From the NCBI GenBank assembly GCA_035312185.1, contig DATGCI010000137.1, forward strand, positions 2,557-34,556: a stretch of DNA of 32,000 bases. Reading direction: 5' to 3'. Shown here one piece after another: positions 1 to 32,000 of this stretch. Position 1 is the stretch's first letter. Every line of letters starts with the position of its first letter. Both the position numbers and the translations under genes were made by a program. The notes under the pieces were generated by a model that did not search any database, was not told the origin of the DNA, and worked only from the letters and a program-made list of their open reading frames with translations. The stretch is from a bacterium (GTDB taxonomy: Bacteria; Fidelibacterota; UBA2242; JAFGTP01).

Positions 1-1418
1 ATGCCAGACGGTTTGCGCTTTTGGAGGTGACAGGTACCACTTTTTAACTCATAAAGGCCATCTTGAGGCAGTTCAGGGATAGAATATTCTTCAATTTTAT
101 CATACCATTCGGGAATAGTTTTAGTTGTTTCGTTGTTTTCTGATGAAGCCAGCAGTTTGATTTTATTATTGTTAGTGAGTCGCCACTCGCTTTGACAATT
201 TTTGCAATAAATCTCTGCCTGCCCCCTTTCTTCAACACTTCCAATCTGACCACATTCCGGACAACGCCAAAACAGTCGCTCAATTCCCTGGTTGAGTTTG
301 TGGGTTGTAAAAATTTTATGCTCAAAATTATGATTAGGTTGATGAAGCACATTGTATAATCTATTTCTGATTTCCTGACTGTTTTCCTTCCTATCCACTT
401 TTAAAGGCGGATGATAGACAACTTTTGCATTGGTTCGGCGCCAGGAATCACTCCAGCGGGGCATAAATCCATCTAATCCACACAGACTTACTGGAATGAT
501 TGGTTGCTTAATTAATTTTAAAACGCGAGCAATGCCCCTGGGAAAAGGTACTGGTTTTCCGCTCCAGCTGCGTTTACCTTCCGGAAAATAACCCACGCTA
601 TCTCCGCTTCGCAAGGATCGCAGCATTTTTCTTATTGCTCCCGGGTCTTTTGTATATTTTTTTACCGGTATTGTATCCATTTTCCTGAGAACATAGGCAA
701 AAATTGGATTATGATAAATATCTGCAGTTGTAAAAAATTTGAGATCATGATGGCAATAAACAGAAATAAAATGAGGATCTAGGTAACTTAGATGATTGGA
801 AATGAAAAGTGCACCTTCATGTTCAGGAATATTTTCTCTACCCTTTACCTCAAGTTCAAAGACAAACTTGGCCAAGAATCTGAATAGCGGGTAATTAATT
901 AATTTCAACCAGGAGGGTCCTTTTTTGCCTTTTCTATTAATTTTATAGAAAAATGGAACTCTTTCTTTATAATTGTCAAATTTTTTAGAAATTTTCTTTC
1001 CATAGCGCTTCTCTTTCACTAAGTAAAGAGCCAATAAAAGGAATATTATCAAAGCAAAAATAATCATATCTATGGTGGTATTCTCGAAAAATCCACTCAA
1101 TCCTAAAAGTATTAAAAAATAACCCATAAAAAAAGGATGGCGAGAACGGCTGTAGGGTCCGGATTGGGGAATTATTTCAGGAACAAAAATCAGGGAGGGC
1201 AAATAATCAGTTTTTACATAAAATAATAACAGCGATTTAAAGGCTAAAAAGAATCCGGCTATAATAAAAAAAGCCGAAACAATTTTCAAAATAATGCCAA
1301 TATAATCATCAGAGGCATAATTATTAGATTGATCAATTATGAAAAGTATTATTGGAATTAAAAGCCAATATATGGCAAAGTGGGCAGAAAAATTAAGCCA
1401 TCTTCTATTATTTTGCAT
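1..1418 (-). CDS. Partial CDS (3' end lies beyond position 1): ICMT/PEMT-like membrane methyltransferase domain fused to a PlsC-type lysophospholipid acyltransferase domain and a C-terminal zinc ribbon
   Basis: Absent from the ORF track because it has no stop in the window. My minus-strand translation from the ATG at 1418-1416 stays open to position 1 (MQNNRRWLNFSAHFAIYWLL...). Motifs read directly: SGPYSRSRHPFFMGYFLILLG (RHPxY..G methyltransferase box), FISNHLSYLDP (HX4D acyltransferase box), GYFPEGKRS (FPEGxR box), and RCPECGQ...YCKNCQ (CxxC...CxxC). The listed ORF 44..352 is an out-of-frame shadow of this gene. Confidence 0.75.
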   Translation of the reverse strand, partial: MQNNRRWLNFSAHFAIYWLLIPIILFIIDQSNNYASDDYIGIILKIVSAFFIIAGFFLAFKSLLLFYVKTDYLPSLIFVPEIIPQSGPYSRSRHPFFMGYFLILLGLSGFFENTTIDMIIFALIIFLLLALYLVKEKRYGKKISKKFDNYKERVPFFYKINRKGKKGPSWLKLINYPLFRFLAKFVFELEVKGRENIPEHEGALFISNHLSYLDPHFISVYCHHDLKFFTTADIYHNPIFAYVLRKMDTIPVKKYTKDPGAIRKMLRSLRSGDSVGYFPEGKRSWSGKPVPFPRGIARVLKLIKQPIIPVSLCGLDGFMPRWSDSWRRTNAKVVYHPPLKVDRKENSQEIRNRLYNVLHQPNHNFEHKIFTTHKLNQGIERLFWRCPECGQIGSVEERGQAEIYCKNCQSEWRLTNNNKIKLLASSENNETTKTIPEWYDKIEEYSIPELPQDGLYELKSGTCHLQKRKPSG

Positions 1419-1592: not shown

Positions 1593-3389
1593 ATGGATAT
1601 AAATGTAAGAAATTTTTCAATAATCGCCCACATTGACCATGGTAAATCCACACTTGCTGATCGCATGCTGGAAGCCACCAAGACTGTTCAGCAGCGGAAT
1701 ATGAAAGATCAGGTGCTGGATAATATGGATCTGGAGCGAGAGCGAGGCATTACTATAAAATCCCATCCCATTCGCATGAAATATCATCATTCTGATGGTG
1801 AAGATTATATTTTAAATTTGATCGACACTCCCGGTCATGTGGATTTTTCCTATGAAGTATCCCGCAGTTTGGCAGCCTGTGAAGGTGCTTTGCTTTTAGT
1901 TGATGCTGCTCAAGGTGTCGAAGCCCAGACTGTAAGTAATGCCTACCTGGCCATAGAAAACGACCTAGAAATCATACCTGTGATCAATAAAATTGATCTT
2001 TCCAGTGCCAGGCTCGAAAATACAACTAGAGAAGTGGTCGATCTGGTGGGCTGTGATGAAGATGAAATTATTTACGCCAGCGCCAAAGAAGGCGACGGCA
2101 TCGAAGATATTTTCTCAGCCATTATTGAGAAGGTTCCTCCTCCTGAACATGAACCTGACAAACCGCTTCGGGCTTTAATATTTGATTCCAATTATGATCC
2201 TTATCAGGGAGCAGTGCCTCATATCAGAATCTTCGAAGGTCAAGTTGAGGTCAATGATTTTGTCCAATTCTTCTCTGATAAGAAGAAACTGGAAGTTTCT
2301 GAATTGGGCTACTTCATTATGGGCAAGCAAAAGACCAAAAAACTTACTTCCGGTGATGTTGGCTATCTGGTATGTGGCTTAAAAGATATTTCCCGAATTG
2401 AAGTTGGCGACACAATTACTGGCTGGAAAAATCCGGCCGAGGAGAGATTACCAGGCTACAAATCTATCAAGCCTATGGTTTTTAGTGGAATGTATCCTGT
2501 CAATCCGGATGATTATAAAGAGTTGCGCAAGGCTCTCGACAAAATGAAATTAAATGATTCTTCATTGACCTTTGAGCCGGAAAATTCTGGTGCTTTGGGT
2601 TTTGGATTTCGCTGTGGCTATCTGGGCATGCTGCATATGGAAGTTATTCAGGAAAGGCTAGAGAGAGAATTCGATATAGAGCTGATCACCACAGTACCCA
2701 ATGTTAAATATTATGCTATTCTCAAAGATGGTGAAAAAATTGAAGTTGAAACACCATTCGATATGCCTCAAGCTAGTAAGATCGAAACTATGCTGGAGCC
2801 CTATGTAAAAGCTGAGGTTATTACGCCTGATGAATATGTTGGTAATGTGATGAAATTATGCGAAGCCAAACGCGGTAATTATGTTTCCACTCATTATTTG
2901 GATATGAAAAAAGTTCAAATAGAATATGAACTACCTATGATGGAAATGATCTATGATTTTTATGATAAATTGAAATCAACCACCCGTGGTTATGCCTCCT
3001 TTGATTATGAATCTATTGGTTACAAGGAAGGTGATCTTGTTAAAGTTGATATTCTGGTTAACAAAGAGCCTCTTGATCCTCTCTCTTTTATCACTCACGA
3101 TGATGATGCTTATTATAAAGGCCGAGAACTTTGCCGCCGACTCAAAGAATTGATCCCCAAGCATATGTTTGAGATACCAATTCAGGCCGCGATTGGCAAC
3201 AAAGTTGTCGCAAGAACTAATATCAAAGCTCTTCGCAAAAATGTAACTGCTAAATGTTATGGTGGTGATGTTACCAGGAAAAGAAAATTGATAGAAAAGC
3301 AAAAAGAAGGCAAAAAACGATTAAAGAAAGTGGGGAGCGTTGATGTCCCTCAGGAAGCCTTTTTCGCTATTCTGGATACCAATAAATAG
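1593..3389 (+). CDS. lepA: Translation elongation factor 4 (LepA)
   Basis: 598 aa. The N-terminus [21 protein letters not shown] carries the G1 box, followed by DTPGHVDF (G3) and NKIDL (G4). The LepA-specific C-terminal region reads [25 protein letters not shown]. Confidence 0.97.
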
Positions 3390-3390
3390 T

Positions 3391-4824
3391 TTACTCTTCA
3401 CAAAATTCTATATAAGCACGTGAGATAATAATTCCATTATTTTTGACTACAACCGGGTACTTTTTGCCCTGTCCATTTACTGAATATTTACTCCACATGT
3501 CCTGTGGAGTTATCCAGTAATTGCGGTCTTCTCCTCTATTAAAATCAACTGGCGGAACAAAGCCTTTCAGATTGACTTGCAAATGCTGTCCCGGAAATTC
3601 CGGAGAGTAAACATCAATAATCTTAAAACGGACACCATTGGTTAATCGGGCGGTCTGACCATCAAGAAAGACAATTTTATGACCACCATTCGCCAGTACA
3701 TAGGTTATTCTCTGGCTATCAATTGATTTTAAATCGATATAGATCTTACCAATTAAATCAGAATCTTTTTTAACCCGGATTTCTGTGGATCTGGTAATAG
3801 TTATTTCCTGCTGAAAATCCTGTTCGGTTCCCGAGCCAATAATATTGCAACTGATTCCTCTTTGATAATTGGAATTAACCCGGGTAATTTTTATTTGATC
3901 GCCGGGAAAGACCCTCAGTGTATCATAATTTTCCACAAAGACAGGCCGTTGCCTATTAACAGAAATATTCATATTATTAAGTTTGGGAGGCGAGATAATG
4001 ACCGAGGGAAATTCAGGCACTACTCCCATCATTTCCAGAAAGGCGTTGATTGCATAATTATGATATCTGATTTTATCTTCAAGGTTGTCAATATTTTTTG
4101 AGGCTTCTATTCCAAAAGCCGGTATTCCTAGATTGGAGACCGCATAAAAAGTGGCTGATTGTTTCATTTCAGGAAAATTACTATTCTTGGCCAGCGTCTT
4201 TGTATTCATAAAATGGAGTTTATGATAGGAATTGGTGATATGATTGTTGGCTTTTTCAACTGCTTTTCGGGCCATTTTCCCTAAATAAATTGTATCGCCC
4301 TGGTGAACATAGGTTTCAGTATCGGCAATAATTGATTGGCCGAATCTATTTGGATTGCGCCCCGGCCCTTCCCACTTTTTAGAGTAGAAGCCCCAGCCAT
4401 CGTGTAAATTCAAAACCAGATCCGATTCTTTCATGAGATCGGTAATTATCTGGACAATTTTGTCTTCATAAATATTATCGGGGGATACATTAAATCTTCG
4501 ATTCATATCTGTGTTTATATAGCGCCGCTTTTTGATAATGGAATGAAAATTAGTGCGGGGTACGACTATTAGATTGCCTTTTTTCAGCATAAGATCTGAA
4601 TATAGATCAGCAGACAGATATCCGCCAGGTTCATCTCCCTGTATTCCCCCAATGATCAAAACAGTTTTACCGTCCTCTTCACCGTACAATTTATAGACAT
4701 TGAGTTCATTACGTGTGTTTTCATAATAGACATTGTGGTCCCGGCGAGGCTGCTTAGCAGTAAGAATGCCCGCCAATATGTTCATTAGTACTAATATTTT
4801 GATAATGTTCTTCATTGCCACCAT
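3391..4824 (-). CDS. Secreted M14-like carboxypeptidase with a Q-x-x-E metal motif (Csd4/Pgp1-like, peptidoglycan peptide trimming) plus a C-terminal beta-rich region
   Basis: 477 aa with a signal-like N-terminus (MKNIIKILVLMNILAGILTA). VLIIGGIQGDEPGGY sits where M14 enzymes carry HxxE. NLHDGWGF is a candidate third metal ligand. An alternative start at 4815 would give an ATGA overlap with the upstream stop. Confidence 0.6.
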   Translation of the reverse strand: MVAMKNIIKILVLMNILAGILTAKQPRRDHNVYYENTRNELNVYKLYGEEDGKTVLIIGGIQGDEPGGYLSADLYSDLMLKKGNLIVVPRTNFHSIIKKRRYINTDMNRRFNVSPDNIYEDKIVQIITDLMKESDLVLNLHDGWGFYSKKWEGPGRNPNRFGQSIIADTETYVHQGDTIYLGKMARKAVEKANNHITNSYHKLHFMNTKTLAKNSNFPEMKQSATFYAVSNLGIPAFGIEASKNIDNLEDKIRYHNYAINAFLEMMGVVPEFPSVIISPPKLNNMNISVNRQRPVFVENYDTLRVFPGDQIKITRVNSNYQRGISCNIIGSGTEQDFQQEITITRSTEIRVKKDSDLIGKIYIDLKSIDSQRITYVLANGGHKIVFLDGQTARLTNGVRFKIIDVYSPEFPGQHLQVNLKGFVPPVDFNRGEDRNYWITPQDMWSKYSVNGQGKKYPVVVKNNGIIISRAYIEFCEE

Positions 4825-6662
4825 TTTTCATCTATGATTTTAAAATTTCCAGGCCTTCCTGTGATGATCAGCAATTTATTACCACTGTCAGCATACCCGG
4901 TTGAATTATAGTCCTGCTTAAAGCTAACTTCCCAGGTATATTTCTGATCACTTTCCACCTCATAACCATAAGTTTTTACTTCAATCTTATCTGTTGCCTG
5001 AAACTTTGAGGCCTTGTCATCTTCCCAGCCTTCTCGGTCGAATTCACCGGAGTTAAAATCCTGAGCATAGTATTGCATATAATTATCAATCTGCTGTGAT
5101 TCCCAGGCTTTCTGCCATTCATCAACAAATTGGATTAATGCTGTGCGAATATTTGTTCTTTGGCCGCGAGTGAAGTCTTCAGTTATTATTTTCCAGCCCT
5201 GTGACTCTCTTGATAAAACAAGAGATTTCTGGCCTTTTGAGAAAAATCGAGGACAATTGTATCGCTGATCAAATTTTATCTGAATATTTTCGCCTTCAAC
5301 AGTATAATCCAAACTATCTATATTGACATCTTTCCAGGCATAAACCTGTTCAAGCCGTTTTTTTCTACGAGCAAAACTTTGATAATTATCACTAGAAGTT
5401 GAAAAATTATCCTGAGAATAATGGGCCAGGTATTCATCCATCTGTCCCTTATTCCAGCTCTGAACCCAATTTTCAGAAAATGTTCCTGTAAATTCTTTTA
5501 GACTAACTTCTTTTTGTTTTTTATAATTTTCTTCGATAGGAGTCCAGTTTCCATTATTGAAATCCAAAAAGGCTTTGTTACTGGCTTCAACTATTTTTTG
5601 GTTATTCAGAAAAGTGAGATCGAAAGCTGCAAATACTTTCTCAGATTCAAGACCAGTATCGAGATCATTAATTAAAATTTTTCCCGGCACTGTATCCTGA
5701 TTTCCGGAATTGATATTTTTTCTATTGTTTTCAGTCCACTGAGAAAGGAATTCATCAATAGTTTCTTGAAAATCAAAGCGTTGATCAGACGGTCCATAAT
5801 CTTCAGTAATAATCTTCCAATCATGGGAGTTCTTAACAAAAGTTAGTTCTTTCGGACCGACTGAAATAAAATCGGGAGTTATATATTCCTGTTCAAATAC
5901 AATTCGAGCTTCATAATCAGCAGAAAAAACCTGTACATTTTCAGTATTAATCTTTTTCCAGTTAATATTCTGATCGATTCGCTCTTTCCGCTCGATATAG
6001 GATTCCAGACTCTGATCAGAATGGAAATTTGGTGAGTAAAACTTTTCATAGGAATTAAATTTACCAGTCTGCCAGGCCTGTTTCCAGTTCTGCAGAACTA
6101 ATTCCCAATTTTTTAATCTAGCATGATAAGTTGAAAAATCGGTACGAGCCAGAGAGTCATAGATTAATACCTTCGTCTTTCCCAGATCAACAAATTTTTT
6201 ATTGACCTCCAGGATTCTATGATTTTCCAGTGACACACAACCTTTGGTCTGACGGGGTTCCAGTTTTTCATTTCGTCCGTGAACCCAGATATTAGTACCG
6301 CCATTTCCCAGAGCTCTGTCCACATGATTAGGATAATCCAGAATCAAAGCTAGAGGGCCATATATTTCTGGCAGATCCCTATCAGTGAGCTTGCTGACAA
6401 TTGTGTAAACCCCTTCCGGAGTTTTTTTATCACCTTCTACTCTTTTATCGCCCCGGCTGGAACCTGTGCTGGCCTCAATAGAATCTACCACTTTCAACCT
6501 TCCCGGTCCCTGACTGGTAAATATATAAAACATCTGCCTGGACTTATCCACTACAAAAACAGGATCAGTAGAATCTGATGAAATATTATAGAATCCAGGT
6601 AAATTGTACCCCCAGAGCACATAGCCAAATATTAATACAACAGAAATAATCCTTTTACACAA
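4812..6662 (-). CDS. YkuD-fold L,D-transpeptidase/L,D-carboxypeptidase domain protein with four tandem NTF2-like C-terminal modules (Csd6/Pgp2-like architecture)
   Basis: 616 aa. The YkuD signature reads NIWVHGRNE...RQTKGCVSLEN (HG...GC). Repeated modules follow of the form W..AW....Y...Y..F ... WKIITEDY/F. The start is TTG at 6662, preceded by AGGTGG 7 nt upstream. The N-terminus is hydrophobic. Confidence 0.8.
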   Translation of the reverse strand: MCKRIISVVLIFGYVLWGYNLPGFYNISSDSTDPVFVVDKSRQMFYIFTSQGPGRLKVVDSIEASTGSSRGDKRVEGDKKTPEGVYTIVSKLTDRDLPEIYGPLALILDYPNHVDRALGNGGTNIWVHGRNEKLEPRQTKGCVSLENHRILEVNKKFVDLGKTKVLIYDSLARTDFSTYHARLKNWELVLQNWKQAWQTGKFNSYEKFYSPNFHSDQSLESYIERKERIDQNINWKKINTENVQVFSADYEARIVFEQEYITPDFISVGPKELTFVKNSHDWKIITEDYGPSDQRFDFQETIDEFLSQWTENNRKNINSGNQDTVPGKILINDLDTGLESEKVFAAFDLTFLNNQKIVEASNKAFLDFNNGNWTPIEENYKKQKEVSLKEFTGTFSENWVQSWNKGQMDEYLAHYSQDNFSTSSDNYQSFARRKKRLEQVYAWKDVNIDSLDYTVEGENIQIKFDQRYNCPRFFSKGQKSLVLSRESQGWKIITEDFTRGQRTNIRTALIQFVDEWQKAWESQQIDNYMQYYAQDFNSGEFDREGWEDDKASKFQATDKIEVKTYGYEVESDQKYTWEVSFKQDYNSTGYADSGNKLLIITGRPGNFKIIDEKWWQ

Positions 6663-9542: not shown

Positions 9543-12235
9543 TAATGGGCCTCATACCAGGATTTTCCAATTCCAATATCAACTCTGACTGGAATATCGA
9601 GTGTAAGTGCAGATTCCATCTCTTTTCTTACCATTTTTGTGAGTTCTTCGACTTCATCTTCAGGAACTTCAAAAATCAATTCATCATGGACCTGCAAAAT
9701 CATCTTAGTTTTCCAGTCTTCTTGATTTAGGCGTTTATCAATATTGATCATTGCTATTTTTATCATATCTGCTGCTGTTCCCTGAATTGGTAAATTGATA
9801 GCAGTTCGTTCAGCAGCTCTCTTTTTATTCTTATTGTCGCTATTGATGCCATGAGTATAGCGGATACGGCCTGCCAGTGTTTCTACATAGCCTTTTTGGC
9901 GGGCCCCATCAAGCGTATTTACAATGTATTGATTAATGCCGGGATAAGTGGAGAAATATTTATCTTTGAGCTCCCGGGCTTCAGCCATAGGAATATTGAG
10001 TTCATTGGACAATCTATAGGGCCCAGCGCCATACATAATCCCATAGTTAACAACTTTGGCAGCTCTGCGCATCTTAGAAGTGACCTCGTCCTCTTCCACT
10101 TTGTTAACCAGAGCCGCTGTTCTAGTGTGAATATCAACATCGTCACTCTGGAAAGCCTCAACAAGGTTGCTGTCTTGAGATAAATGAGCCATGATCCGTA
10201 ATTCAATTTGCGAATAATCGGCTGACAATATTTTGTAATTCTCCTGCTGAGGTTTGAAGGCTTTGCGAATCTGTTTACCAATATCTGTACGAATCGGAAT
10301 ATTCTGAAAATTAGGTTTGCTGCTGGTCAATCGACCAGTAGAAGCGATTGTCTGGTTAAATGATGTGTGAATGCGCCCGGTTTCGGGATTGACCATTTCC
10401 GGAAAAGCATCGAGATAGGTATTCTTGAGTTTGGTTAATTTTCTATATTCCAGCACCAGTCCGGGAATAGGATTTTTATCTTCCAATTTTTTAAGCACTT
10501 TTTCAGCAGTTGATCTTTTTCTGATCTGCGGTAATTCCAGCCGGTCAAATAAAATTTCGCTGAGCTGCTTTGGTGAATTAAGATTAAATTCTACACCTGC
10601 TTCCTCGTACACTTGTTCAGAAATATAATTGATCTTTTCTGTAATTTCAGCCGACATCTCTTCTAGATAAGGGATTTCAACATAGACACCATTTTGTTCC
10701 ATATCCATGAGGACAGGAATCAGGGGAATTTCAATATCATAATAAATTTCATCAAGATTTTTCTTTTCAAGTTTTTCTTTCAAAATGGGCGTCAGTTGAT
10801 AGGCAACATCGGCATCTTCACAAGCATAAAAAGTTATCTCCTCTAGCGGGACATCAGCCATTGACTTCTGATTTTTGCCTTTGCCAATTAGTTCCTCAAT
10901 TGGTTGCATTTTATAGTATAAATATTGCTGACTGAGTCGATCCAGGTTAAATTTCCTATTATCTGGCTGCAATAGGAAAGCAGCGATCATAGTATCAAAA
11001 TGTAATCCCTGGACATCAATTCCATATCGCCTTAGAATAAGCATGTCATATTTTAGATTTTGGCCACATTTTTTGATCTCAGGGTCTTCAAGGATCGGCT
11101 TCAATTTCTGGAGCGTTTCCAGCTGGGGTTTATCAGAGAACAAAGTCTTTTGCTTTGCAGCATAATTTACCGGAACATAGCTTCCACTATGTTTCTCCGC
11201 ACTCAATGAGACGCCCACAATTTCTGCCTGCATAGGATCCACAGATGTTGTTTCCAGATCTACGGATAAAAGATCAACATCCTTATATTTTTCTATAACT
11301 TGATCGAGATCTTTCTCAGTTTTAACTGCTTGATAATCTTTCTTTTTCCTAATCTTTTCCTGATCCTCCTGAAAGCGCTGAATAAGGGAATGGAATTCCA
11401 GGTCTTTGAAGAGTTCCATCAATTTATCTTTGTCAACCTGCTTGTGATTGAATTTTTCCAGATCTAATTTCACTGAAACATCAGTATCGATTTTGGTTAG
11501 TTTTTTGGAAAATTGAGCCTGCTCTTCACCCTTTTTAAGATAATTTCTAAGCCGTTTACTTTTTACTTTATCCAGATTATCATAGATATCTTCAATTGAC
11601 TCAAATTGGTTTAATAATTTTGCTGCTCTTTTTTCTCCAATTCCTTTTACTCCAGGAATATTATCAGAAGTATCACCCATTAAAGCCAGGAAATCAGCAA
11701 CCTGACCGGGCTTGATGTTCCATTTTTCCTGCAATTCTTTGCTGGTAATGATCTCATCTTTTTTCTTGCCTCGACCGGGTTTGAACATGTAAACATTATC
11801 ATCAAGAATCTGCATGAGGTCTTTGTCACCAGTTACCATATAGACTTCCAGATCTTCTTGATCAGCCTTGCGGGCTAAGGTTCCCAGCACATCATCAGCC
11901 TCGTAACCTGGCTCGATCAGAACTTCAATATTGAGAGCACTGGTTAGATCATGGATATAAGGCAGCTGCTTAACCAGATCTTCGGGCATGGCTTCTCGGG
12001 TGGCTTTATATTCAGGATAGATTTCATGTCGAAAGGTCTTTTCCGAAGCATCAAAAACCATGGCAATATGGTCGGGATTCTGATTTTCCAGAAGATTCAG
12101 CATAGAATTAACAAAAGCATAACAGGCTCCAGTAGGAAAGCCATCTGATCTGACCAGACCAGCTCTGATCATTCCAAAATAAGAACGGTAGGCTATAGCC
12201 GAACCATCTATAATATAAAGGTTTTCTTTCGACAT
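9542..12235 (-). CDS. polA: DNA polymerase I (5' nuclease, 3'-5' exonuclease and polymerase domains)
   Basis: 897 aa. Features read directly: the N-terminus LYIIDGSAIAYRSYF, the Exo I-like motif VDLETTS, the polymerase motif A region LSADYSQIELRIMAH, RRAAKVVNYGIMYG, and motif C QVHDELIFE. Confidence 0.97.
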   Translation of the reverse strand: MSKENLYIIDGSAIAYRSYFGMIRAGLVRSDGFPTGACYAFVNSMLNLLENQNPDHIAMVFDASEKTFRHEIYPEYKATREAMPEDLVKQLPYIHDLTSALNIEVLIEPGYEADDVLGTLARKADQEDLEVYMVTGDKDLMQILDDNVYMFKPGRGKKKDEIITSKELQEKWNIKPGQVADFLALMGDTSDNIPGVKGIGEKRAAKLLNQFESIEDIYDNLDKVKSKRLRNYLKKGEEQAQFSKKLTKIDTDVSVKLDLEKFNHKQVDKDKLMELFKDLEFHSLIQRFQEDQEKIRKKKDYQAVKTEKDLDQVIEKYKDVDLLSVDLETTSVDPMQAEIVGVSLSAEKHSGSYVPVNYAAKQKTLFSDKPQLETLQKLKPILEDPEIKKCGQNLKYDMLILRRYGIDVQGLHFDTMIAAFLLQPDNRKFNLDRLSQQYLYYKMQPIEELIGKGKNQKSMADVPLEEITFYACEDADVAYQLTPILKEKLEKKNLDEIYYDIEIPLIPVLMDMEQNGVYVEIPYLEEMSAEITEKINYISEQVYEEAGVEFNLNSPKQLSEILFDRLELPQIRKRSTAEKVLKKLEDKNPIPGLVLEYRKLTKLKNTYLDAFPEMVNPETGRIHTSFNQTIASTGRLTSSKPNFQNIPIRTDIGKQIRKAFKPQQENYKILSADYSQIELRIMAHLSQDSNLVEAFQSDDVDIHTRTAALVNKVEEDEVTSKMRRAAKVVNYGIMYGAGPYRLSNELNIPMAEARELKDKYFSTYPGINQYIVNTLDGARQKGYVETLAGRIRYTHGINSDNKNKKRAAERTAINLPIQGTAADMIKIAMINIDKRLNQEDWKTKMILQVHDELIFEVPEDEVEELTKMVRKEMESALTLDIPVRVDIGIGKSWYEAH

Positions 12236-12287
12236 ATTAAAGAGTCTCCTTACAGATTGTTTTTATATATTTTTTCGATCTAACCGG

Positions 12288-13076
12288 CTAGGGCTTAACT
12301 ATTATATAATTTAAATTTAATTTGCGCTCAATTTCCATCCCTATCTGTTTGGCTCTAGCCCGCGATGGATAGGGTCCCAGTTTGACAGCTTGAAACTTCT
12401 GATTGGTCTCTTTCTCCTGAAGGTAAGCTTTATACCCCTGTGATTTGAGTTCCTTCATCAAAGAGCGGGCATTATCAGGATTGGAGAAAACACCGATCTG
12501 AATAGAAAATTGTTCGGAGTCCTGGTGAGCCGGGCGACTTTTTCTCTGCCCCTCACTAATCGTGTACAGAGACAGATATTCCGAATCTTTCAGATAGGGT
12601 TGCAATTCCGGATAGCTATTTTCCAATTTGTTTCTATAAAAATCGATCAAGTCAGTCCTATTAATAGCCTTTAAGCTGCAAAACAGAAGAGGCACTACAT
12701 CTTTGGTCAATTCTGAATCCGAATGCTCGGTGATAAACTCTTTGGACATCTCCACAGTTTTATGATATAGGCCCGTGGTATAATTATATTTGATCAATTC
12801 AACAGTGGCTTTGAGAGCGGTTTGAGAATCAGGATATTGGTTTATTATCCGGTTATAGATGCGGACAGATGTTTCAGCATCATCTTCTACAACAGCAGAT
12901 AGAAAAAGCACTTCAGGATTATCTGGATAATTGTCCAGAAGCTGTTCTACGGCATTTCGAACCGATTTTAATTTGCCAGCCTCAATATCACGGTAATATT
13001 TCTCCAGATTTTGGCCAGTCAATAGAATTGTTGTGAAAATAAATAATGTAATTAATTTTTTCATAGCTCTAATCAT
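12288..13076 (-). CDS. SPOR-domain protein with signal peptide and TPR-like helical region
   Basis: The C-terminal FSIQIGVFSNPDNARSLMKELKSQGYKAYL...VKLGPYPSRARA fits the SPOR fold pattern. An alternative start MKKLITLF lies at 13064. Confidence 0.75.
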   Translation of the reverse strand: MIRAMKKLITLFIFTTILLTGQNLEKYYRDIEAGKLKSVRNAVEQLLDNYPDNPEVLFLSAVVEDDAETSVRIYNRIINQYPDSQTALKATVELIKYNYTTGLYHKTVEMSKEFITEHSDSELTKDVVPLLFCSLKAINRTDLIDFYRNKLENSYPELQPYLKDSEYLSLYTISEGQRKSRPAHQDSEQFSIQIGVFSNPDNARSLMKELKSQGYKAYLQEKETNQKFQAVKLGPYPSRARAKQIGMEIERKLNLNYIIVKP

Positions 13077-14214
13077 TAAAAAATGTATCGATTAAACCGC
13101 ATTCCGGACAGATCCAGGATATTTTATCAACCTTATGTCCACAATTGGAGCAAACATATTCATTTTTACGTTCAATTTGCTCCATAATATCAATAAGTAA
13201 ATTTTTTGTTTTATGGCTATTGTCATCAACGAGAATGCGGGCCAGACTGATCTTGGCTTTTAAAGATTCAGGATGCTTGTCAATAATATTTTCGATCAGG
13301 GAAATGGCTTCATCAGTTTTTCCCTTGCGAACTTTATATTCAGCCAGTTCAATGCTCGTTTCCAGATGATAGGGTACTTCTTCCAGCACATCTTTGTAAT
13401 AATTGTAAATTTCGTCAAAACGATTCTGCTGAAAGAGCACTTTTTTGAGTTGGGGATAGATCAAGTGGGAGCGTTGAGGGGCTTTATCCAGAAATTTTTT
13501 CCACCATTCTATAGCATCATCCGGACGATCATCTTTAATATAAGAGTCAGCCATATAATAATAGGGCGCCTCACAGCTGCGATCGTATTTGCGAGCCTTG
13601 CGAAATATCAAGCGGGCGTCATGATAATTTTTATTATCATATTTTTGAAGTCCTTCTCTGGTTTTGTAGATTGCTAGCAAACGTTTATTGGACTTATTTT
13701 TCTTATCATAAGTCTTTAAATGCTCAAAAGCCTCTTTCCAGCGATTCAAATCCCGGTATAATTTCCAGGCCGTTTTCAAAGCCCATTCATTGTCACTGTC
13801 CAAGTCAAGGACTTCCTGAGTAGTTTTTATAGCTTTTTCTTTATCATCAAGAGCTTTATAATCCTCAGTCACTTGAGTCAGAACACTAATTCTTTGACTT
13901 TTAGTAATGTTCTGGCGAAAAAGGAGACTTTTATGAATCTTAAGAGCTTTCCCCGGCTTATCCACTTTTCGGAAAAGCATGCCCAATTTGATATAAACAT
14001 CAATATTTTTGGTATGTTCTGTGTCATTGTAAACATATTTCTTAAAACAGTCGATAGCCTCCTGATAATTACCACTGATCATATGATTGAGGCCGCGTGT
14101 ATATAGGCTTCCACTATCTTCCTGTCCCCTATTTGAGAAGAAAAAATAGTAGATCACCCAGGCTAAAATAGCCACGACAATAATTATTGCTGGAATGAGA
14201 ATATTTGCACCCAT
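13069..14214 (-). CDS. lapB: LapB/YciM-like protein: N-terminal TM helix, TPR repeats and a C-terminal rubredoxin-like zinc finger
   Basis: 381 aa. One N-terminal TM segment is followed by repeated TPR-like helices. The C-terminus reads CSNCGHKVDKISWICPECG. It lies immediately downstream of a LapA-like gene. Confidence 0.7.
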   Translation of the reverse strand: MGANILIPAIIIVVAILAWVIYYFFFSNRGQEDSGSLYTRGLNHMISGNYQEAIDCFKKYVYNDTEHTKNIDVYIKLGMLFRKVDKPGKALKIHKSLLFRQNITKSQRISVLTQVTEDYKALDDKEKAIKTTQEVLDLDSDNEWALKTAWKLYRDLNRWKEAFEHLKTYDKKNKSNKRLLAIYKTREGLQKYDNKNYHDARLIFRKARKYDRSCEAPYYYMADSYIKDDRPDDAIEWWKKFLDKAPQRSHLIYPQLKKVLFQQNRFDEIYNYYKDVLEEVPYHLETSIELAEYKVRKGKTDEAISLIENIIDKHPESLKAKISLARILVDDNSHKTKNLLIDIMEQIERKNEYVCSNCGHKVDKISWICPECGLIDTFFND

Positions 14215-22100: not shown

Positions 22101-22113
22101 GGAAATAATTTCC
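22101..22113. promoter_or_regulatory. Palindrome GGAAAT-A-ATTTCC (possible upstream activator site)
   Basis: 6+6 perfect arms, about 115-125 bp upstream of the sigma-54-like element. A TTTATCAGG direct repeat lies nearby at 22130-22138 and 22168-22176. Confidence 0.2.
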
Positions 22114-22225: not shown

Positions 22226-22240
22226 TGGCATATTAATTGA
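22226..22240 (+). promoter_or_regulatory. Sigma-54-like -24/-12 element TGGCAT-N5-TTGA upstream of flgB
   Basis: The spacing matches TGGCAC-N5-TTGC exactly. The -24 GG is present, but -12 reads GA instead of GC. No TAnnTTTG box is present here, unlike at the housekeeping genes. Confidence 0.3.
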
Positions 22241-22261: not shown

Positions 22262-22651
22262 ATGAGGACTTGTATGAAATTTGACATTTTTAACACCAAC
22301 AAATCGGATCTGCTCAAGAACGGGCTCAATGTTTATACAAAGCAAGTTCGTAATAATGCCAAAAATATCGCTAATATTGACAATCCTACTTATAATCGAG
22401 CGAAAACGGATTTCTCTGATGAATTAGTGGCTGCCAAAGAAAAAGCCCGTCTAAAAGCCACCAATAATAAGCATATTCTAAAACCACATTACCAGCCCAA
22501 AATGGGAATAAAAGAAAGAAGCAAAAAAGAGGTCGATCTGAATAAGGAAATGAGCCAGCTGGCCGAAAATCAAATTCGATACAACTTTGCTTCCCGGGTA
22601 TTAAGAAAACATTATGCTGGTCTCAAGAAAAGTATCAGTGGTAGAATTTAA
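22262..22651 (+). CDS. flgB: Flagellar basal-body rod protein FlgB
   Basis: The stretch VRNNAKNIANIDNPTYNRAKTDF carries the rod-protein N-terminal signature (ANNIAN...T.GY-like). C-terminal heptads read LAENQIRYNFASRVL. An alternative start at 22274 (MKFDIF) has GAGGA 5 nt upstream. Confidence 0.9.
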   Translation: MRTCMKFDIFNTNKSDLLKNGLNVYTKQVRNNAKNIANIDNPTYNRAKTDFSDELVAAKEKARLKATNNKHILKPHYQPKMGIKERSKKEVDLNKEMSQLAENQIRYNFASRVLRKHYAGLKKSISGRI

Positions 22652-23163: not shown

Positions 23164-23457
23164 GTGGAGCATATGTCAGATTTAAATTCCATTAAAGCCA
23201 ATAATCTTTACAATAAAATATATAGTAGGCAAAGTGCCTATTCTGAAAACCAGAAGACTCAGAAAAGCACGCAAGATCCTCAACAATTATCCCAAAAAGA
23301 GGATCAGAAAGTAAAAAATGACGAGTTTCTGTCCAATTCTGAAATCAATACTTTGCATATGTTTTTTGGTTCTGACAAACCTGAGGAAATGCAATTTTAT
23401 GGAAATAATAAGGTCAAAAGTATCCACAAAGGCCAATTTTTAGATCTGAAAGGATAA
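23164..23457 (+). CDS. Small Q/K-rich hypothetical protein inserted between flgC and fliE
   Basis: 94-97 aa (GTG at 23164 or ATG at 23173). It is tightly packed, 6 bp after the flgC stop and 2 bp before the fliE start. It has no TM segment. There is only a faint FlgM-like flavour (NLYNKIY near the N-terminus, KVKSIHKGQF near the C-terminus). Confidence 0.6.
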   Translation: MEHMSDLNSIKANNLYNKIYSRQSAYSENQKTQKSTQDPQQLSQKEDQKVKNDEFLSNSEINTLHMFFGSDKPEEMQFYGNNKVKSIHKGQFLDLKG

Positions 23458-28479: not shown

Positions 28480-28944
28480 ATGTCAAAACAGTTTAAATTT
28501 TCATTACATCGCGTCTTAAAATTCCAAAGTGATAAAGAAGATCTGAAGGCTACAGATCTGAGTAAATCCAAACAACAGCTCAAACGTGAAAGAGAACGCT
28601 TGAAAAAATTGCAGAGTAAAAAAAGTGATCACCTGGGACGAACTGAAACTCTCATAAACGGTGACAACTCCATTTCTCTGGAAAAGTTGAGAGCTTCAGC
28701 AGATTATCTTTCCCAATTGAATGAAAAAATTTCCTCGCAGGATCAAAAAGTTGAAAAATCAAACCAAGAAGTTGAAAAAGCCCGTAAAGATTTAATCGAA
28801 GTAAGTAAAAATCGCAAAATTCTAGAGAAATTACGGGAAAAACAGTATCAGGATTACCGAGAAAAAAGTAAAAAAGAAGAGCGCAGGAAAGAAAGCGAGA
28901 TTGCCTTGCGAAGAAAAACTCGAAACAATGACATTAAGGATTGA
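28480..28944 (+). CDS. fliJ: Flagellar export chaperone-like protein FliJ
   Basis: 154-aa all-coiled-coil protein beginning FKFSLHRVLKFQSDKEDL. It sits immediately after fliI. Confidence 0.75.
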   Translation: MSKQFKFSLHRVLKFQSDKEDLKATDLSKSKQQLKRERERLKKLQSKKSDHLGRTETLINGDNSISLEKLRASADYLSQLNEKISSQDQKVEKSNQEVEKARKDLIEVSKNRKILEKLREKQYQDYREKSKKEERRKESEIALRRKTRNNDIKD

Positions 28945-29485: not shown

Positions 29486-29743
29486 ATGGATTTCATAGCA
29501 TTTTTCAAACAAAAATGGATAAAAATGAACACTAATCTACAAATTAATACAAATCAATTTTCCGAACTTGTGGAAATAATTTCCGAATCAAAATCATTTC
29601 TATTTGTGATTAATTTAATATATTTACTGCTGTTTATAGTTTCTAACATATTGTTATTTATTAACTTATTTTTATATAAAGTTAAACTCATTAAAAATAT
29701 CAAGAAAAATTTTTACCCTGGCATATTAATTGAAACTGTATAA
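29486..29743 (+). CDS. Possible small single-pass membrane protein (doubtful)
   Basis: 85 aa (72 aa from the ATG at 29525). It has one strongly hydrophobic segment, FLFVINLIYLLLFIVSNILLFINLFLY. The DNA is extremely AT-rich, no SD was seen, and it could be a chance ORF. Confidence 0.3.
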   Translation: MDFIAFFKQKWIKMNTNLQINTNQFSELVEIISESKSFLFVINLIYLLLFIVSNILLFINLFLYKVKLIKNIKKNFYPGILIETV

Positions 29744-29792: not shown

Positions 29793-32000
29793 ATGAACCA
29801 GACTCTTAACATAGTAAATTTTGGCAAAACCCAAAGCCCGGAAAAGGCTGGATCCAAAGGCCAGTCTTTTTCTATGGAGAATGGGACTAATTTTGAGGCT
29901 TTCTTTTCGGGAGAATTGCATCCCAGGCCAGCCAAAATTAGAAATCAGGCCGCTAATTCCAAGCAGCCACAATCTGTCCAATCAAAATCTGCGTCTAATA
30001 TATCTGATGTGTCTGATTCAAAAAAAGCCACAAATGGAAACAGTGGCAACAAAATATTTCGTTCTTCCAATCAAAATATTTCCAACAATAATACTGATAA
30101 TAATGCCAAAACCAAAAAAGTAAATTCAGGTGAAAAACAGTTTAATTCTGAATCAGCAAAAAATTCCGATAATAACCAAAAAGCAAAAAATCAAGATAAT
30201 AGAACTGCTGAAAACAAAATAGCATCTAATGATAAGAACAAGGCAGCAATACAGGAAGCCAGGCCATTAGATGATAATCAGCAAGCCCAAAAAACTACTC
30301 AAAAACCAAACAATTCTAATCAGGTTAAAGAAACTCCGCAAGAGAATAGGCCTTTAGAAAACGACTCGCAGTCGAAAAATACTAAAACTGATTCAAACGG
30401 GTCAAACAGTTCGAAGAATATAAGGTCTAAACAGTCTGAAAATATTGCTCAGAATATATCCAACAGAACGAAAGAACAAGTAACCAATATAAAAAACAAT
30501 AATTCAAATCAAACATCACAAAATAATAAGTCCGAAAAGCTACCTAATGAATCTATTAATACTGGCAATGCCAAAACTGAATCCACTCAAAACAATAAAA
30601 AAACAGCTACGATATCAAACAAAACTCATTCAGAGGGTTCAAAAAATAATTCTTCTGAAAGTCACCCTATTCAAAACCGATCAGCAGCAAAAACTGAAAA
30701 TCCAGGTTCCGAAATCAAGTCTTCAGAAAATATGACAGCCAATACTTCTGAAATACAAAATCAGAATGTAAAAAATCATTCTACTCAAAATAATGGCATC
30801 TCAGAAAATAAAATTAATGTAAAAACTCAAAGCCAACAAGAATCACACAATAATCAATCAACACCTGTAAAAGCGGAACCAGTTCAGCACAAAGATGCTC
30901 AAAACTCAAACGCTAATCAAGAAAAAAGCATTAATAACAATTCCTTTGAAAATGCAAGCCCACAGAGCAAATCAAATAATAATCTCTGGCCTTCTAAACA
31001 AAAAAATATAAAATCTGAACCAGGCCAGCAAAATATTTCTAATCACAAGGCTAACAACAAAAATCAAAACACTTCTACTGAAAATATTGCTAATAATCCG
31101 TCAAATCATAAGTCCAAAAAAGTAGAGACACATACTAATCCTTCAACTGCAAAACAGGAGAATTCTTCGGCTGCTGATCGCTCCCCCCAAAACAATCAAA
31201 CAAATTCTAGAACAGAGTTTAAATCAAAAAATATTAACCAAAATACGGATGAGCCGAATTTTCAGCCTAACACTTCTAATCGGCCAGAGACTCCCGGAAA
31301 CAAAATAAACTCAGATAATCAAGCCAAACAATCCCAACAATCCAGCCAGCCTTCGACAATAGTAAAACATAATTCTCAAAATCAGTCCAATGTAAAAAGT
31401 CAAATTGATAGTAAACAGAATATTGAGAGTAGCCAGAAAAAGGCAATAAAATCAGAAATTGCAAATCAAAAACAAACTCATTCCAGTAATAATTTAAAAG
31501 TAGACCAAAACCAAAATAACAGCCAAAATCTCACAGCTCAGCAAAAAACACAAACCCAATCTAATTCCAATCAACAAAACTTGAATCGATCCAATCTAGA
31601 TAGCGAAAAAATCCAGAACAATTCTGATAATCAGAACAACAATCAGAGAGTTTTTTCAACTCGATCAGGAAAACAAAAATCAAACTCTCAGGAAAACGTA
31701 AATATAGTTAATGAATCCTCAGAAAAAGTATATCAGAAAACAATAAATAATCCTGATAAAAATCATCCCCATTCTAATCAGGAAATCCAATCCAAAAATC
31801 AACAAACAACTACAGCACGATTAAAGCAGAATCAAACTATCAAAAAAATTCAAACCAGACAAAAATCTGCTCAACAGACTGAATCCGAGCCAGAACAACA
31901 TTTTGTAAAAGCCGATAAACAGCAAAATACTTCGCAAAATAATACAATCCGAAATCAGGATAAGGCTTCGACTATACCTAATTCAGAAGCAAAATCACAC
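29793..32000 (+). CDS. Partial CDS (continues beyond window): very long N/Q/S/K/T-rich disordered protein in the fliK (hook-length control) position
   Basis: Absent from the ORF track because it has no stop in the window. My translation from the ATG at 29793 (preceded by an in-frame TAA) is open for exactly 736 codons to position 32000 (MNQTLNIVNFGKTQSPEKAGSKGQSFSMENGTNFEAFFSGEL...). The other five frames are full of stops. There is no signal peptide, no Cys and almost no hydrophobic residues. Coding status is about 0.9 confident; the FliK assignment is inference from synteny and composition only. Confidence 0.55.
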   Translation, partial: MNQTLNIVNFGKTQSPEKAGSKGQSFSMENGTNFEAFFSGELHPRPAKIRNQAANSKQPQSVQSKSASNISDVSDSKKATNGNSGNKIFRSSNQNISNNNTDNNAKTKKVNSGEKQFNSESAKNSDNNQKAKNQDNRTAENKIASNDKNKAAIQEARPLDDNQQAQKTTQKPNNSNQVKETPQENRPLENDSQSKNTKTDSNGSNSSKNIRSKQSENIAQNISNRTKEQVTNIKNNNSNQTSQNNKSEKLPNESINTGNAKTESTQNNKKTATISNKTHSEGSKNNSSESHPIQNRSAAKTENPGSEIKSSENMTANTSEIQNQNVKNHSTQNNGISENKINVKTQSQQESHNNQSTPVKAEPVQHKDAQNSNANQEKSINNNSFENASPQSKSNNNLWPSKQKNIKSEPGQQNISNHKANNKNQNTSTENIANNPSNHKSKKVETHTNPSTAKQENSSAADRSPQNNQTNSRTEFKSKNINQNTDEPNFQPNTSNRPETPGNKINSDNQAKQSQQSSQPSTIVKHNSQNQSNVKSQIDSKQNIESSQKKAIKSEIANQKQTHSSNNLKVDQNQNNSQNLTAQQKTQTQSNSNQQNLNRSNLDSEKIQNNSDNQNNNQRVFSTRSGKQKSNSQENVNIVNESSEKVYQKTINNPDKNHPHSNQEIQSKNQQTTTARLKQNQTIKKIQTRQKSAQQTESEPEQHFVKADKQQNTSQNNTIRNQDKASTIPNSEAKSH

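Follow-up and report, generated by a model that had tools for sequence, protein, structure and literature searches.

The 32,000-nucleotide (nt) stretch of DNA analyzed here, referred to below as the window (G000:C137:2557-34556), comes from contig DATGCI010000137.1 (C137) of a member of the Fidelibacterota, formerly Marinimicrobia/SAR406 (assembly GCA_035312185.1, genome G000). The window ends in a run of flagellar genes in the order fliF-fliG-fliH-fliI-fliJ-ylxF-like-fliK. The last of these is an open reading frame (ORF) that leaves the window at its 3' end and encodes an almost purely polar, N/Q/S/K-rich chain; an earlier note, made from the sequence alone, had proposed it as an unusually long version of FliK, the ruler protein that sets how long the flagellar hook becomes. 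We are confident that the ORF makes up the first 56%, counted from the 5' end, of a genuine fliK. The remainder, which includes the folded C-terminal domain, lies on a second contig of the same genome, C249, and together the two pieces would encode a protein of ~1315 residues.

The frame opens with an ATG immediately 3' of a TAA and continues for 736 codons with its 3' end open. A chance origin had been called not credible, and the counts bear this out: the fliK frame contains 0 stops, whereas the five remaining frames of this DNA carry 30–95 each, shuffled DNA (n = 2000) yielded open frames of at most 195 codons, and the probability of 736 open codons by chance is ~7e-23 with the local T-poor composition allowed for. 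An artefact of T-poor DNA was considered as the cause and rejected: with A at 46% and T at 21% locally, a codon is still a stop with a probability of 0.067. The description of the product as polar, free of cysteine, and lacking a transmembrane segment or an obvious tandem repeat also holds. In the window piece, N accounts for 19.2%, S for 14.4%, Q for 12.0%, K for 11.0%, and T for 7.2% of the residues, with 0 Cys; the neighboring proteins (n = 6) have 4.9% N and 4.6% Q. It has no transmembrane segment (the 19-residue Kyte–Doolittle mean peaks at 0.31), and Tandem Repeats Finder returned only two trivial two-copy rows for its DNA. Self-BLAST of the whole protein gives the identity match only, and repeats were therefore sought by chunked self-comparison, which detected no internal protein repeat in the window piece. 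The coding strand is A- and C-rich, as the earlier note had remarked, with an AT skew of +0.40 and a GC skew of −0.22 to −0.32, because of the AAT, CAA, AAA, TCN, and ACN codons. The frame does run off the window, as that note had it, but the contig too ends there, 2 nt on.

G000 is a metagenome-assembled genome (MAG) of ~3 Mb in 336 contigs, 76% complete. Scanning every contig for long N/Q/S/K/T-rich frames revealed exactly one further frame, open-ended and located at the start of C249. A genome of the same genus, G001, carries a single uninterrupted 1465-codon fliK in the same operon order on one contig (L016:3750-8144), and the C249 piece aligns to residues 762–821 and 934–1465 of its product. 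The two contig ends thus fall on neighboring residues of the orthologue, 761/762 (QINTKPNQS in C249; QIKTKSNQS in G001), and a global alignment of the joined pieces is gapless at the junction. The ends share a 7-nt overlap with one mismatch (CACACAT vs. CACAAAT) that keeps the frame; an overlap as good occurs in only 0.4% of random contig-end pairs of the genome. There is no further fliK-like sequence on the other G000 contigs, at either the protein or the DNA level. The genes flanking the two pieces are equally diverged from G001 (86–98% identity on both contigs). The lengths of the orthologues, 1465 amino acids (aa) in G001 and 1120 aa on an 86-kb ENA contig with the same gene order, point the same way, each being a single uninterrupted gene in the same slot. 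We infer that the C137 and C249 pieces are one gene of ~1315 codons (735 + 580), split by assembly; as an annotation repair, two orphan partial ORFs of the MAG become one fliK.

Alternatively, the two frames may not be one gene: they could be two genes, products of a chimeric bin, or the flanks of a collapsed or missing repeat-containing gap, in which case the true protein would be longer or interrupted. The fragmentation of the MAG fits this explanation, as do the one-letter difference between the last bases of C137 and the start of C249 and the extra duplicated segments that G001 has near this place. An exact scan of public metagenome contigs with the C137 end found no independent contig spanning the junction, a protein-pattern scan of metagenome contigs found no relatives of the window piece, and neither the window piece, the C249 piece, nor the G001 protein has an exact entry in a collection of 15 billion proteins. 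The adjacent orthologue residues, the rare in-frame overlap, the intact gene in two relatives, and the equal divergence of the two contigs all speak against this alternative, and we regard it as very improbable. A repeat-containing gap hidden at the junction was, in particular, judged unlikely in view of the gapless alignment and the lack of another fliK-like contig.

Table 1. Features of the fliK locus and of the flagellar cluster. Coordinates refer to the window unless a contig is named; residues are those of the reconstructed protein.
Feature	Position	Strand	Evidence or remarks
fliJ	28480..28944	+	PF02050, 53.9 bits
ylxF-position gene, 175 aa	28941..29468	+	N-terminal transmembrane helix, MgtE_N-like C-terminus; PF03448, 27.4 bits (cut-off 25.9)
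85-aa ORF between ylxF-like gene and fliK	29486..29743	+	no Pfam match; overlaps palindrome and promoter candidate
13-bp palindrome GGAAATAATTTCC	29572..29584	.	147 nt 5' of promoter candidate
sigma-54-type −24/−12 promoter candidate TGGCATATTAATTGA	29719..29733	+	60 nt 5' of fliK ATG
5' part of fliK, codons 1–736 of ~1315	29793..32000	+	open frame; aligned to G001 residues 1–761
conserved N-terminal 50 residues	29793..29942	+	82% identity, dN/dS 0.24 vs. G001
N/Q/S/K-rich spacer, window part (whole spacer: residues 51 to ~1170)	29943..32000	+	hydropathy, pLDDT, no Pfam family
predicted isolated α-helix, residues 661–695	31773..31877	+	AlphaFold2 pLDDT 66–91
3' part of fliK, 580 codons ending in Flg_hook/T3S4 domain	G000:C249:23781-25520	-	off-window; open-ended frame
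helix and folded switch domain	residues ~1171–1263		91% identity, dN/dS 0.08 vs. G001
C-terminal tail, 52 residues	residues 1264–1315		88% identity to G001; low pLDDT
paired module 1, 5' of flgB-position ORF	22101-22113 + 22226-22240		
paired module 2, 5' of fliK	29572-29584 + 29719-29733		
paired module 3, between motB and fliL-like gene	G000:C249, reverse-complement coordinates 6740 and 6969	-	
129-aa ORF in flgB position	22262-22651		no Pfam match
97-aa ORF between flgC and fliE	23164-23457	+	no Pfam family
flgE, 656 aa	G000:C249, reverse-complement 2929-4899	-	FlgE_D2 domain
flhB	G000:C249, reverse-complement 11997-13142	-	NPTF at the autocleavage site

The identification as FliK had first been drawn from the slot, and gene content, domain, and fold now agree with it. 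Upstream, the window holds the expected fliJ and an MgtE_N-type gene in the ylxF position (Table 1), the latter 93% identical in G001 and present in the same slot in the ENA relative. Downstream, the genes on C249 are flgD, Flagellar_put, flgE, motA, motB, a fliL-like gene, fliM, fliN, a fliO-like gene, fliP, fliQ, fliR, flhB, and flhA, so the flgD and flgE that the earlier note expected behind a true fliK are both in place; G001 has fliG-fliH-fliI-fliJ-ylxF-like, fliK, and flgD-Flagellar_put-flgE-motAB in this order on one contig. The C-terminal domain on which the assignment hinged, Flg_hook (PF02120), matches residues 454–528 of the C249 piece at 44.9 bits, above the Pfam cut-off of 29.8. 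In a six-frame search of the genome, the same match (48.1 bits) is the sole one to PF02120, and no separate canonical fliK was found; at 76% completeness, the MAG leaves room for a second copy, which weighs against too firm an identification. AlphaFold2 models of the C249 piece, based on a shallow multiple sequence alignment of four sequences (word-indexed homologue searches gave 2 and 1 matches), predict residues 436–528 with a predicted local distance difference test score (pLDDT) of 81–92 as a helix followed by a β-β-β-α-α-β core (strands 461–465, 471–479, and 482–489; helices 492–499 and 502–511; strand 518–523). Foldseek returned only two significant matches for this model, the PscP switch domain (5cuk; TM-score 0.64, root-mean-square deviation 3.1 Å) and the C-terminal domain of FliK, FliK-C (2rrl), both with a probability of 1.00. 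A PDB sequence search (phmmer) with the C-terminal 195 residues gave chance-level matches only, and kinship to FliK-C and PscP is therefore visible only at the level of the Pfam profile and the fold. In sum, PF02120, a predicted T3S4 fold, a long middle predicted to be disordered, a hook-gene context, and a conserved C-terminal tail are all present. By analogy with its family, the protein is presumably an exported substrate of the flagellar type III system.

The reconstructed protein is built by a short conserved N-terminus, a very long spacer, a folded switch domain preceded by a helix, and a C-terminal tail (Table 1). The first 50 residues are presumed to contain a hook-type export signal and a tip that contacts the hook or its cap, a role taken from the N-terminal domain of Salmonella FliK, FliK-N (PMC6972891); outside the genus, only a weak F..FF..EL-type motif is kept. 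The spacer, ~1120 residues, is predicted to be disordered, in line with the earlier note, as judged by composition, hydropathy, and AlphaFold2 pLDDT used as a proxy for a dedicated predictor. Its Kyte–Doolittle hydropathy is −1.3 to −2.3 throughout. In the window piece, modeled from a shallow alignment as well, pLDDT falls below 50 at 655 of the 735 residues, and the model lacks a tertiary fold, with three isolated helices: the one listed in Table 1 and two weaker ones at residues 211–234 and 535–561. Residues 1–435 of the C249 piece have pLDDT values of 30–40 and no secondary structure. The note's figure of more than 730 residues ahead of any folded domain was right in kind, and the number is corrected here to ~1170. 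The tail ends in Y-G-Y-N-T-x-E-x-x-A, invariant in four relatives.

Comparison with G001 shows how unevenly these regions evolve. Linker residues 51–1135 are 53% identical, with a ratio of nonsynonymous to synonymous substitution rates (dN/dS) of 0.39 overall and up to 0.9 in some windows. Two parts of the linker are better preserved: the 651–700 window around the predicted helix (70% identity, dN/dS 0.22), which is the best-conserved linker block of the window piece, and residues 1001–1150 (68–78% identity, dN/dS 0.09–0.22). By this measure, a fast-evolving linker between conserved ends is the selection pattern typical of FliK.

We also analyzed the length and distribution of FliK in Fidelibacterota, to which FliI, 71–72% identical to Neomarinimicrobiota MAGs, ties the genome. 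A Flg_hook match was found in 74 of the 401 genomes of the phylum; the corresponding open frames are mostly 600–900 codons, eight are at least 1000, and the longest is that of G001 (1465 codons). Start-corrected lengths in the family are 694 aa (genus g3), 1049–1198 aa (genus g2), 1120 aa (ENA contig), ~1315 aa (G000), and 1465 aa (G001), and N+Q+S content climbs with FliK length; the FliKs of the genus of G000 and G001 (g1) are the longest found in the 401 genomes and also the richest in N/Q/S. Searching 1.84 billion representative proteins with the C-terminal 195 residues (phmmer) gave 324 proteins at E ≤ 0.001; ~14 of the best 150 of these exceed 1000 aa, the longest single-domain one having 1198 aa, and a 1051-aa relative (P0005) already bears the NCBI name FliK [Fidelibacterota bacterium]. 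One protein of 1638 aa (P0008) matches the query in ten separate stretches, a multi-copy Flg_hook architecture unlike that of the single-domain giant. FliK here stands at the extreme of a family already known and is not a new kind of system. The extra length of G001 over G000, 150 residues between sister species, comes from insertions of 22 and 124 residues. The G001 linker matches itself at 626–704, the counterpart of the region of the predicted helix at residues 661–695 in G000, with 899–955 and at 821–905 with 1054–1138; the larger insertion consists of copies of the protein's own linker parts, and the ruler therefore grows by segmental duplication.

In functional terms, the activity of such a protein would be rationalized, as in Salmonella FliK, into three steps. 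(i) Export: FliK would be exported now and then through the flagellar type III channel during hook growth. (ii) Measurement: once rod and hook are long enough, the C-terminal domain would reach its place at the export gate at a time when hook or cap still retain the N-terminal tip. (iii) Switching: the C-terminal domain would then act on FlhB, and export would switch from hook protein to filament proteins. As the 2-nm channel forces the chain into single file, a spacer 3–4 times longer would set a proportionally longer hook. A chain with the rise of an α-helix, 0.15 nm per residue, gives a lower bound of ~190 nm. Engineered FliKs of 363–785 aa made hooks of 42–135 nm, i.e., 0.2 nm per residue (PMC6126814), from which hooks of ~237 nm (1315 aa) and ~267 nm (1465 aa) are extrapolated, and a fully extended chain at 0.37 nm per residue (PMC6972891) sets an upper bound of ~390–450 nm; these hook-length figures go beyond the range of the calibration and presuppose the Salmonella baseline. 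If the gene is functional, we give an unusually long hook a little less than an even chance, which leaves room for the earlier note's alternative of another use for the disordered region. The fuller proposition that hooks in this genus measure ~200–400 nm, 4–7 times those of Salmonella, are set by a fully disordered N/Q-rich ruler in place of a helical one, and are evolving quickly in length between sister species by segmental duplications in fliK is put forward tentatively, as possible rather than probable.

Several observations weigh against a long hook. Salmonella swimming is impaired by hooks longer than ~75 nm (PMC6126814), the one member of the phylum in isolation has been described as non-motile (PMC11652737), and no flagellum of the phylum has been imaged. 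Both the length and the sequence of the spacer evolve fast, with rulers shifting from 694 to 1465 aa within the family, including the 124-aa duplication between congeners. A further observation bears on the identification as FliK itself and counts against it: the FlhB on which the switch domain should act reads NPTF in place of the canonical NPTH. The motif is also NPTF in G001 and is NPVF in G004 (L103, L104); the variant is common to three genera of the family and is therefore a lineage trait, not an error. In HrcU, a paralogue of FlhB, the T266A and H267A mutants were still cleaved (PMC3040844), and the NPTF variant may for this reason be functional. Against the long hook, finally, the last, better-conserved 150 residues of the linker could be the effective measuring part.

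This last point belongs to a different account of the protein, in which it is a real FliK with a mostly non-measuring spacer. A better-conserved segment near the switch domain (residues ~1000–1170) or one of the short conserved helices would measure, the long N-terminal chain would leave through the hook tip first, the spacer would be a loosely constrained, drifting low-complexity sequence, and the hook would be ordinary or moderately longer. Within the operon, the linker indeed evolves fastest (53% identity vs. 86–98% for the neighboring genes, with dN/dS up to 0.9 in some windows), rulers of the family vary from 694 to 1465 aa and change by segmental duplication, residues 1001–1150 stand out clearly in conservation, and long hooks are detrimental in Salmonella. 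Set against this, every tested insertion in Salmonella and injectisome rulers gave linear lengthening, up to 785 aa; the first 50 residues show the conservation that a measuring and export tip should have; the spacer is under purifying selection overall; and, the two duplications aside, only small indels separate the congeners over ~1100 residues. We see this account as a real possibility, short of a likelihood. The composition of the spacer allows for yet another proposal: after secretion, the N/Q-rich region might have a second job, e.g., outside the cell as a polymer that is sticky or associates with itself in a prion-like manner, with the ruler using only part of the protein. FliK enters the medium during hook assembly (PMC6972891), N and Q make up ~31% of the residues, prion-like and far off the proteome background, and none of the relatives goes as far in composition as this genus. 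Beyond composition, no domain, repeat, or motif points to binding or catalysis, each hook in the systems studied takes the export of only a few FliK molecules, and the sequence is poorly conserved, and we consider a second job improbable.

For the reading of the whole spacer as a ruler, the interest lies in the calibration of the ruler model, which was made only with engineered Salmonella FliKs of up to 785 residues. The genus offers natural rulers of ~1315 and 1465 residues, predicted to be coil, plus close relatives of 694–1198 residues. Should the hooks lengthen in step with their rulers, they would be the longest controlled hooks known and would form a natural series for testing length measurement by a disordered chain in a 2-nm channel; should they not, the ruler model in its simple form would have to be amended for long chains of this kind. 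The literature searched contains no description of natural FliKs of this size or of ruler-controlled hooks longer than 135 nm, which is not proof of absence. The hook protein is also large: FlgE has 656 aa (629–642 aa in relatives), and Salmonella FlgE has ~400 aa. In Campylobacter, additional domains of FlgE make the hook stiffer (PMC5097172), and a large FlgE may matter to a long hook; if hook length does follow ruler length, the mechanics of such a joint, built of this FlgE, would be worth study.

The control region of fliK contains a sigma-54-type promoter candidate and, further 5', a palindrome (Table 1). The sigma-54-type element has two matches in the window versus 0.37 expected, and its TGGCAY-N5-TTGA form 5' of fliK is invariant in four relatives; the genome encodes rpoN and at least nine sigma-54 activators. 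The palindrome GGAAATAATTTCC likewise has two window matches versus 0.31 expected and is conserved in relatives, making it a possible site for an enhancer-binding protein. The palindrome, in the form GGAAATNATTTCC, occurs in five copies in the whole 3-Mb genome, of which three, all in the flagellar cluster, are paired with a sigma-54-like site (TGGCAY-N5-TTGM) 125–229 nt downstream, each ahead of a flagellar transcription unit. This arrangement suggests a flagellar regulon of RpoN and an enhancer-binding protein with a defined operator, in which fliK appears to head its own sigma-54-dependent unit, fliK-flgD-flgE-motAB. The 85-aa ORF that overlaps both elements was rejected as a real gene, since stops break its frame in G001 though the DNA blocks are conserved, and it is probably spurious. 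The ENA relative has a called gene of 90 aa at this position that shares only the N-terminal '..QTN.FSEL.EIIS'. In genus g2 (G003, G007, and G006; loci L017, L018, and L019), fliK (1049–1198 aa) is preceded by an unrelated gene of ~525 aa, not by fliJ-ylxF, and flgD-flgE-motAB still lie 3' of it; the cluster is split exactly at the fliK promoter region.

Elsewhere in the window, the 97-aa ORF between flgC and fliE (Table 1) has a positional counterpart of 93 aa in the ENA relative (L101:1341-1622), with which it shares 55% identity and a conserved C-terminal motif, LH.FFGS.KPEEMQFYG.NKV..I.KGQFLDLKG. Judged by this conservation, it is an unannotated small protein of the flagellar operon. The 129-aa ORF in the flgB position is likewise a Pfam orphan. 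The flagellar cluster as a whole appears complete and sigma-54-controlled, in a phylum whose known members are for the most part non-motile or unstudied.

Among known rulers, FliK of Salmonella enterica is the natural reference. It comprises 405 aa, divided into FliK-N (1–207), a linker (208–267), and FliK-C (268–405), which consists of a core (268–352) and a disordered tail (PMC6972891; PDB 2RRL). The order of parts is the same as in the G000 protein, i.e., an N-terminal export and measuring end, a flexible middle, a T3S4/Flg_hook domain, and a disordered tail of ~50 residues. The fold (Foldseek match to 2rrl), the Pfam family, and the genomic partners flgD, flgE, and flhB are shared as well. 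The differences lie in scale and composition: the G000 protein is ~3.2 times longer and that of its congener 3.6 times; ~1170 residues precede the switch domain here versus 267 there; and the spacer is N/Q/S/K-rich and predicted to be coil, whereas that of Salmonella is Pro-rich or partly helical. The sequence has diverged too far from the solved domain for phmmer to detect it, and the FlhB partner has NPTF versus NPTH.

The engineered long Salmonella FliKs (up to 785 aa, with hooks up to 135 nm; Spöring et al. 2018, PMC6126814) resemble the G000 protein in that residues added behind the tip and ahead of the switch domain lengthen the ruler, and they are the sole calibration for the hook-length prediction at 0.2 nm per residue. 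Unlike them, the G000 protein is natural and almost twice as long as the longest ruler tested, and the extra residues, YscP helices in the engineered proteins, are predicted to be disordered. The injectisome rulers YscP/PscP (5CUK) provide the best structural match to the folded domain and follow the same secreted-ruler logic, acting on a paralogue of FlhB, but they serve needle systems, whereas the G000 gene is part of a flagellar operon, and the Pfam model that it matches is the flagellar one. Closest of all are the other long FliKs of Fidelibacterota and its neighbors (P0005, 1051 aa; P0004, 1120 aa; G007, 1198 aa), which belong to the same family, end in the same YGYNT.E..A motif, and share the trend toward enlargement.

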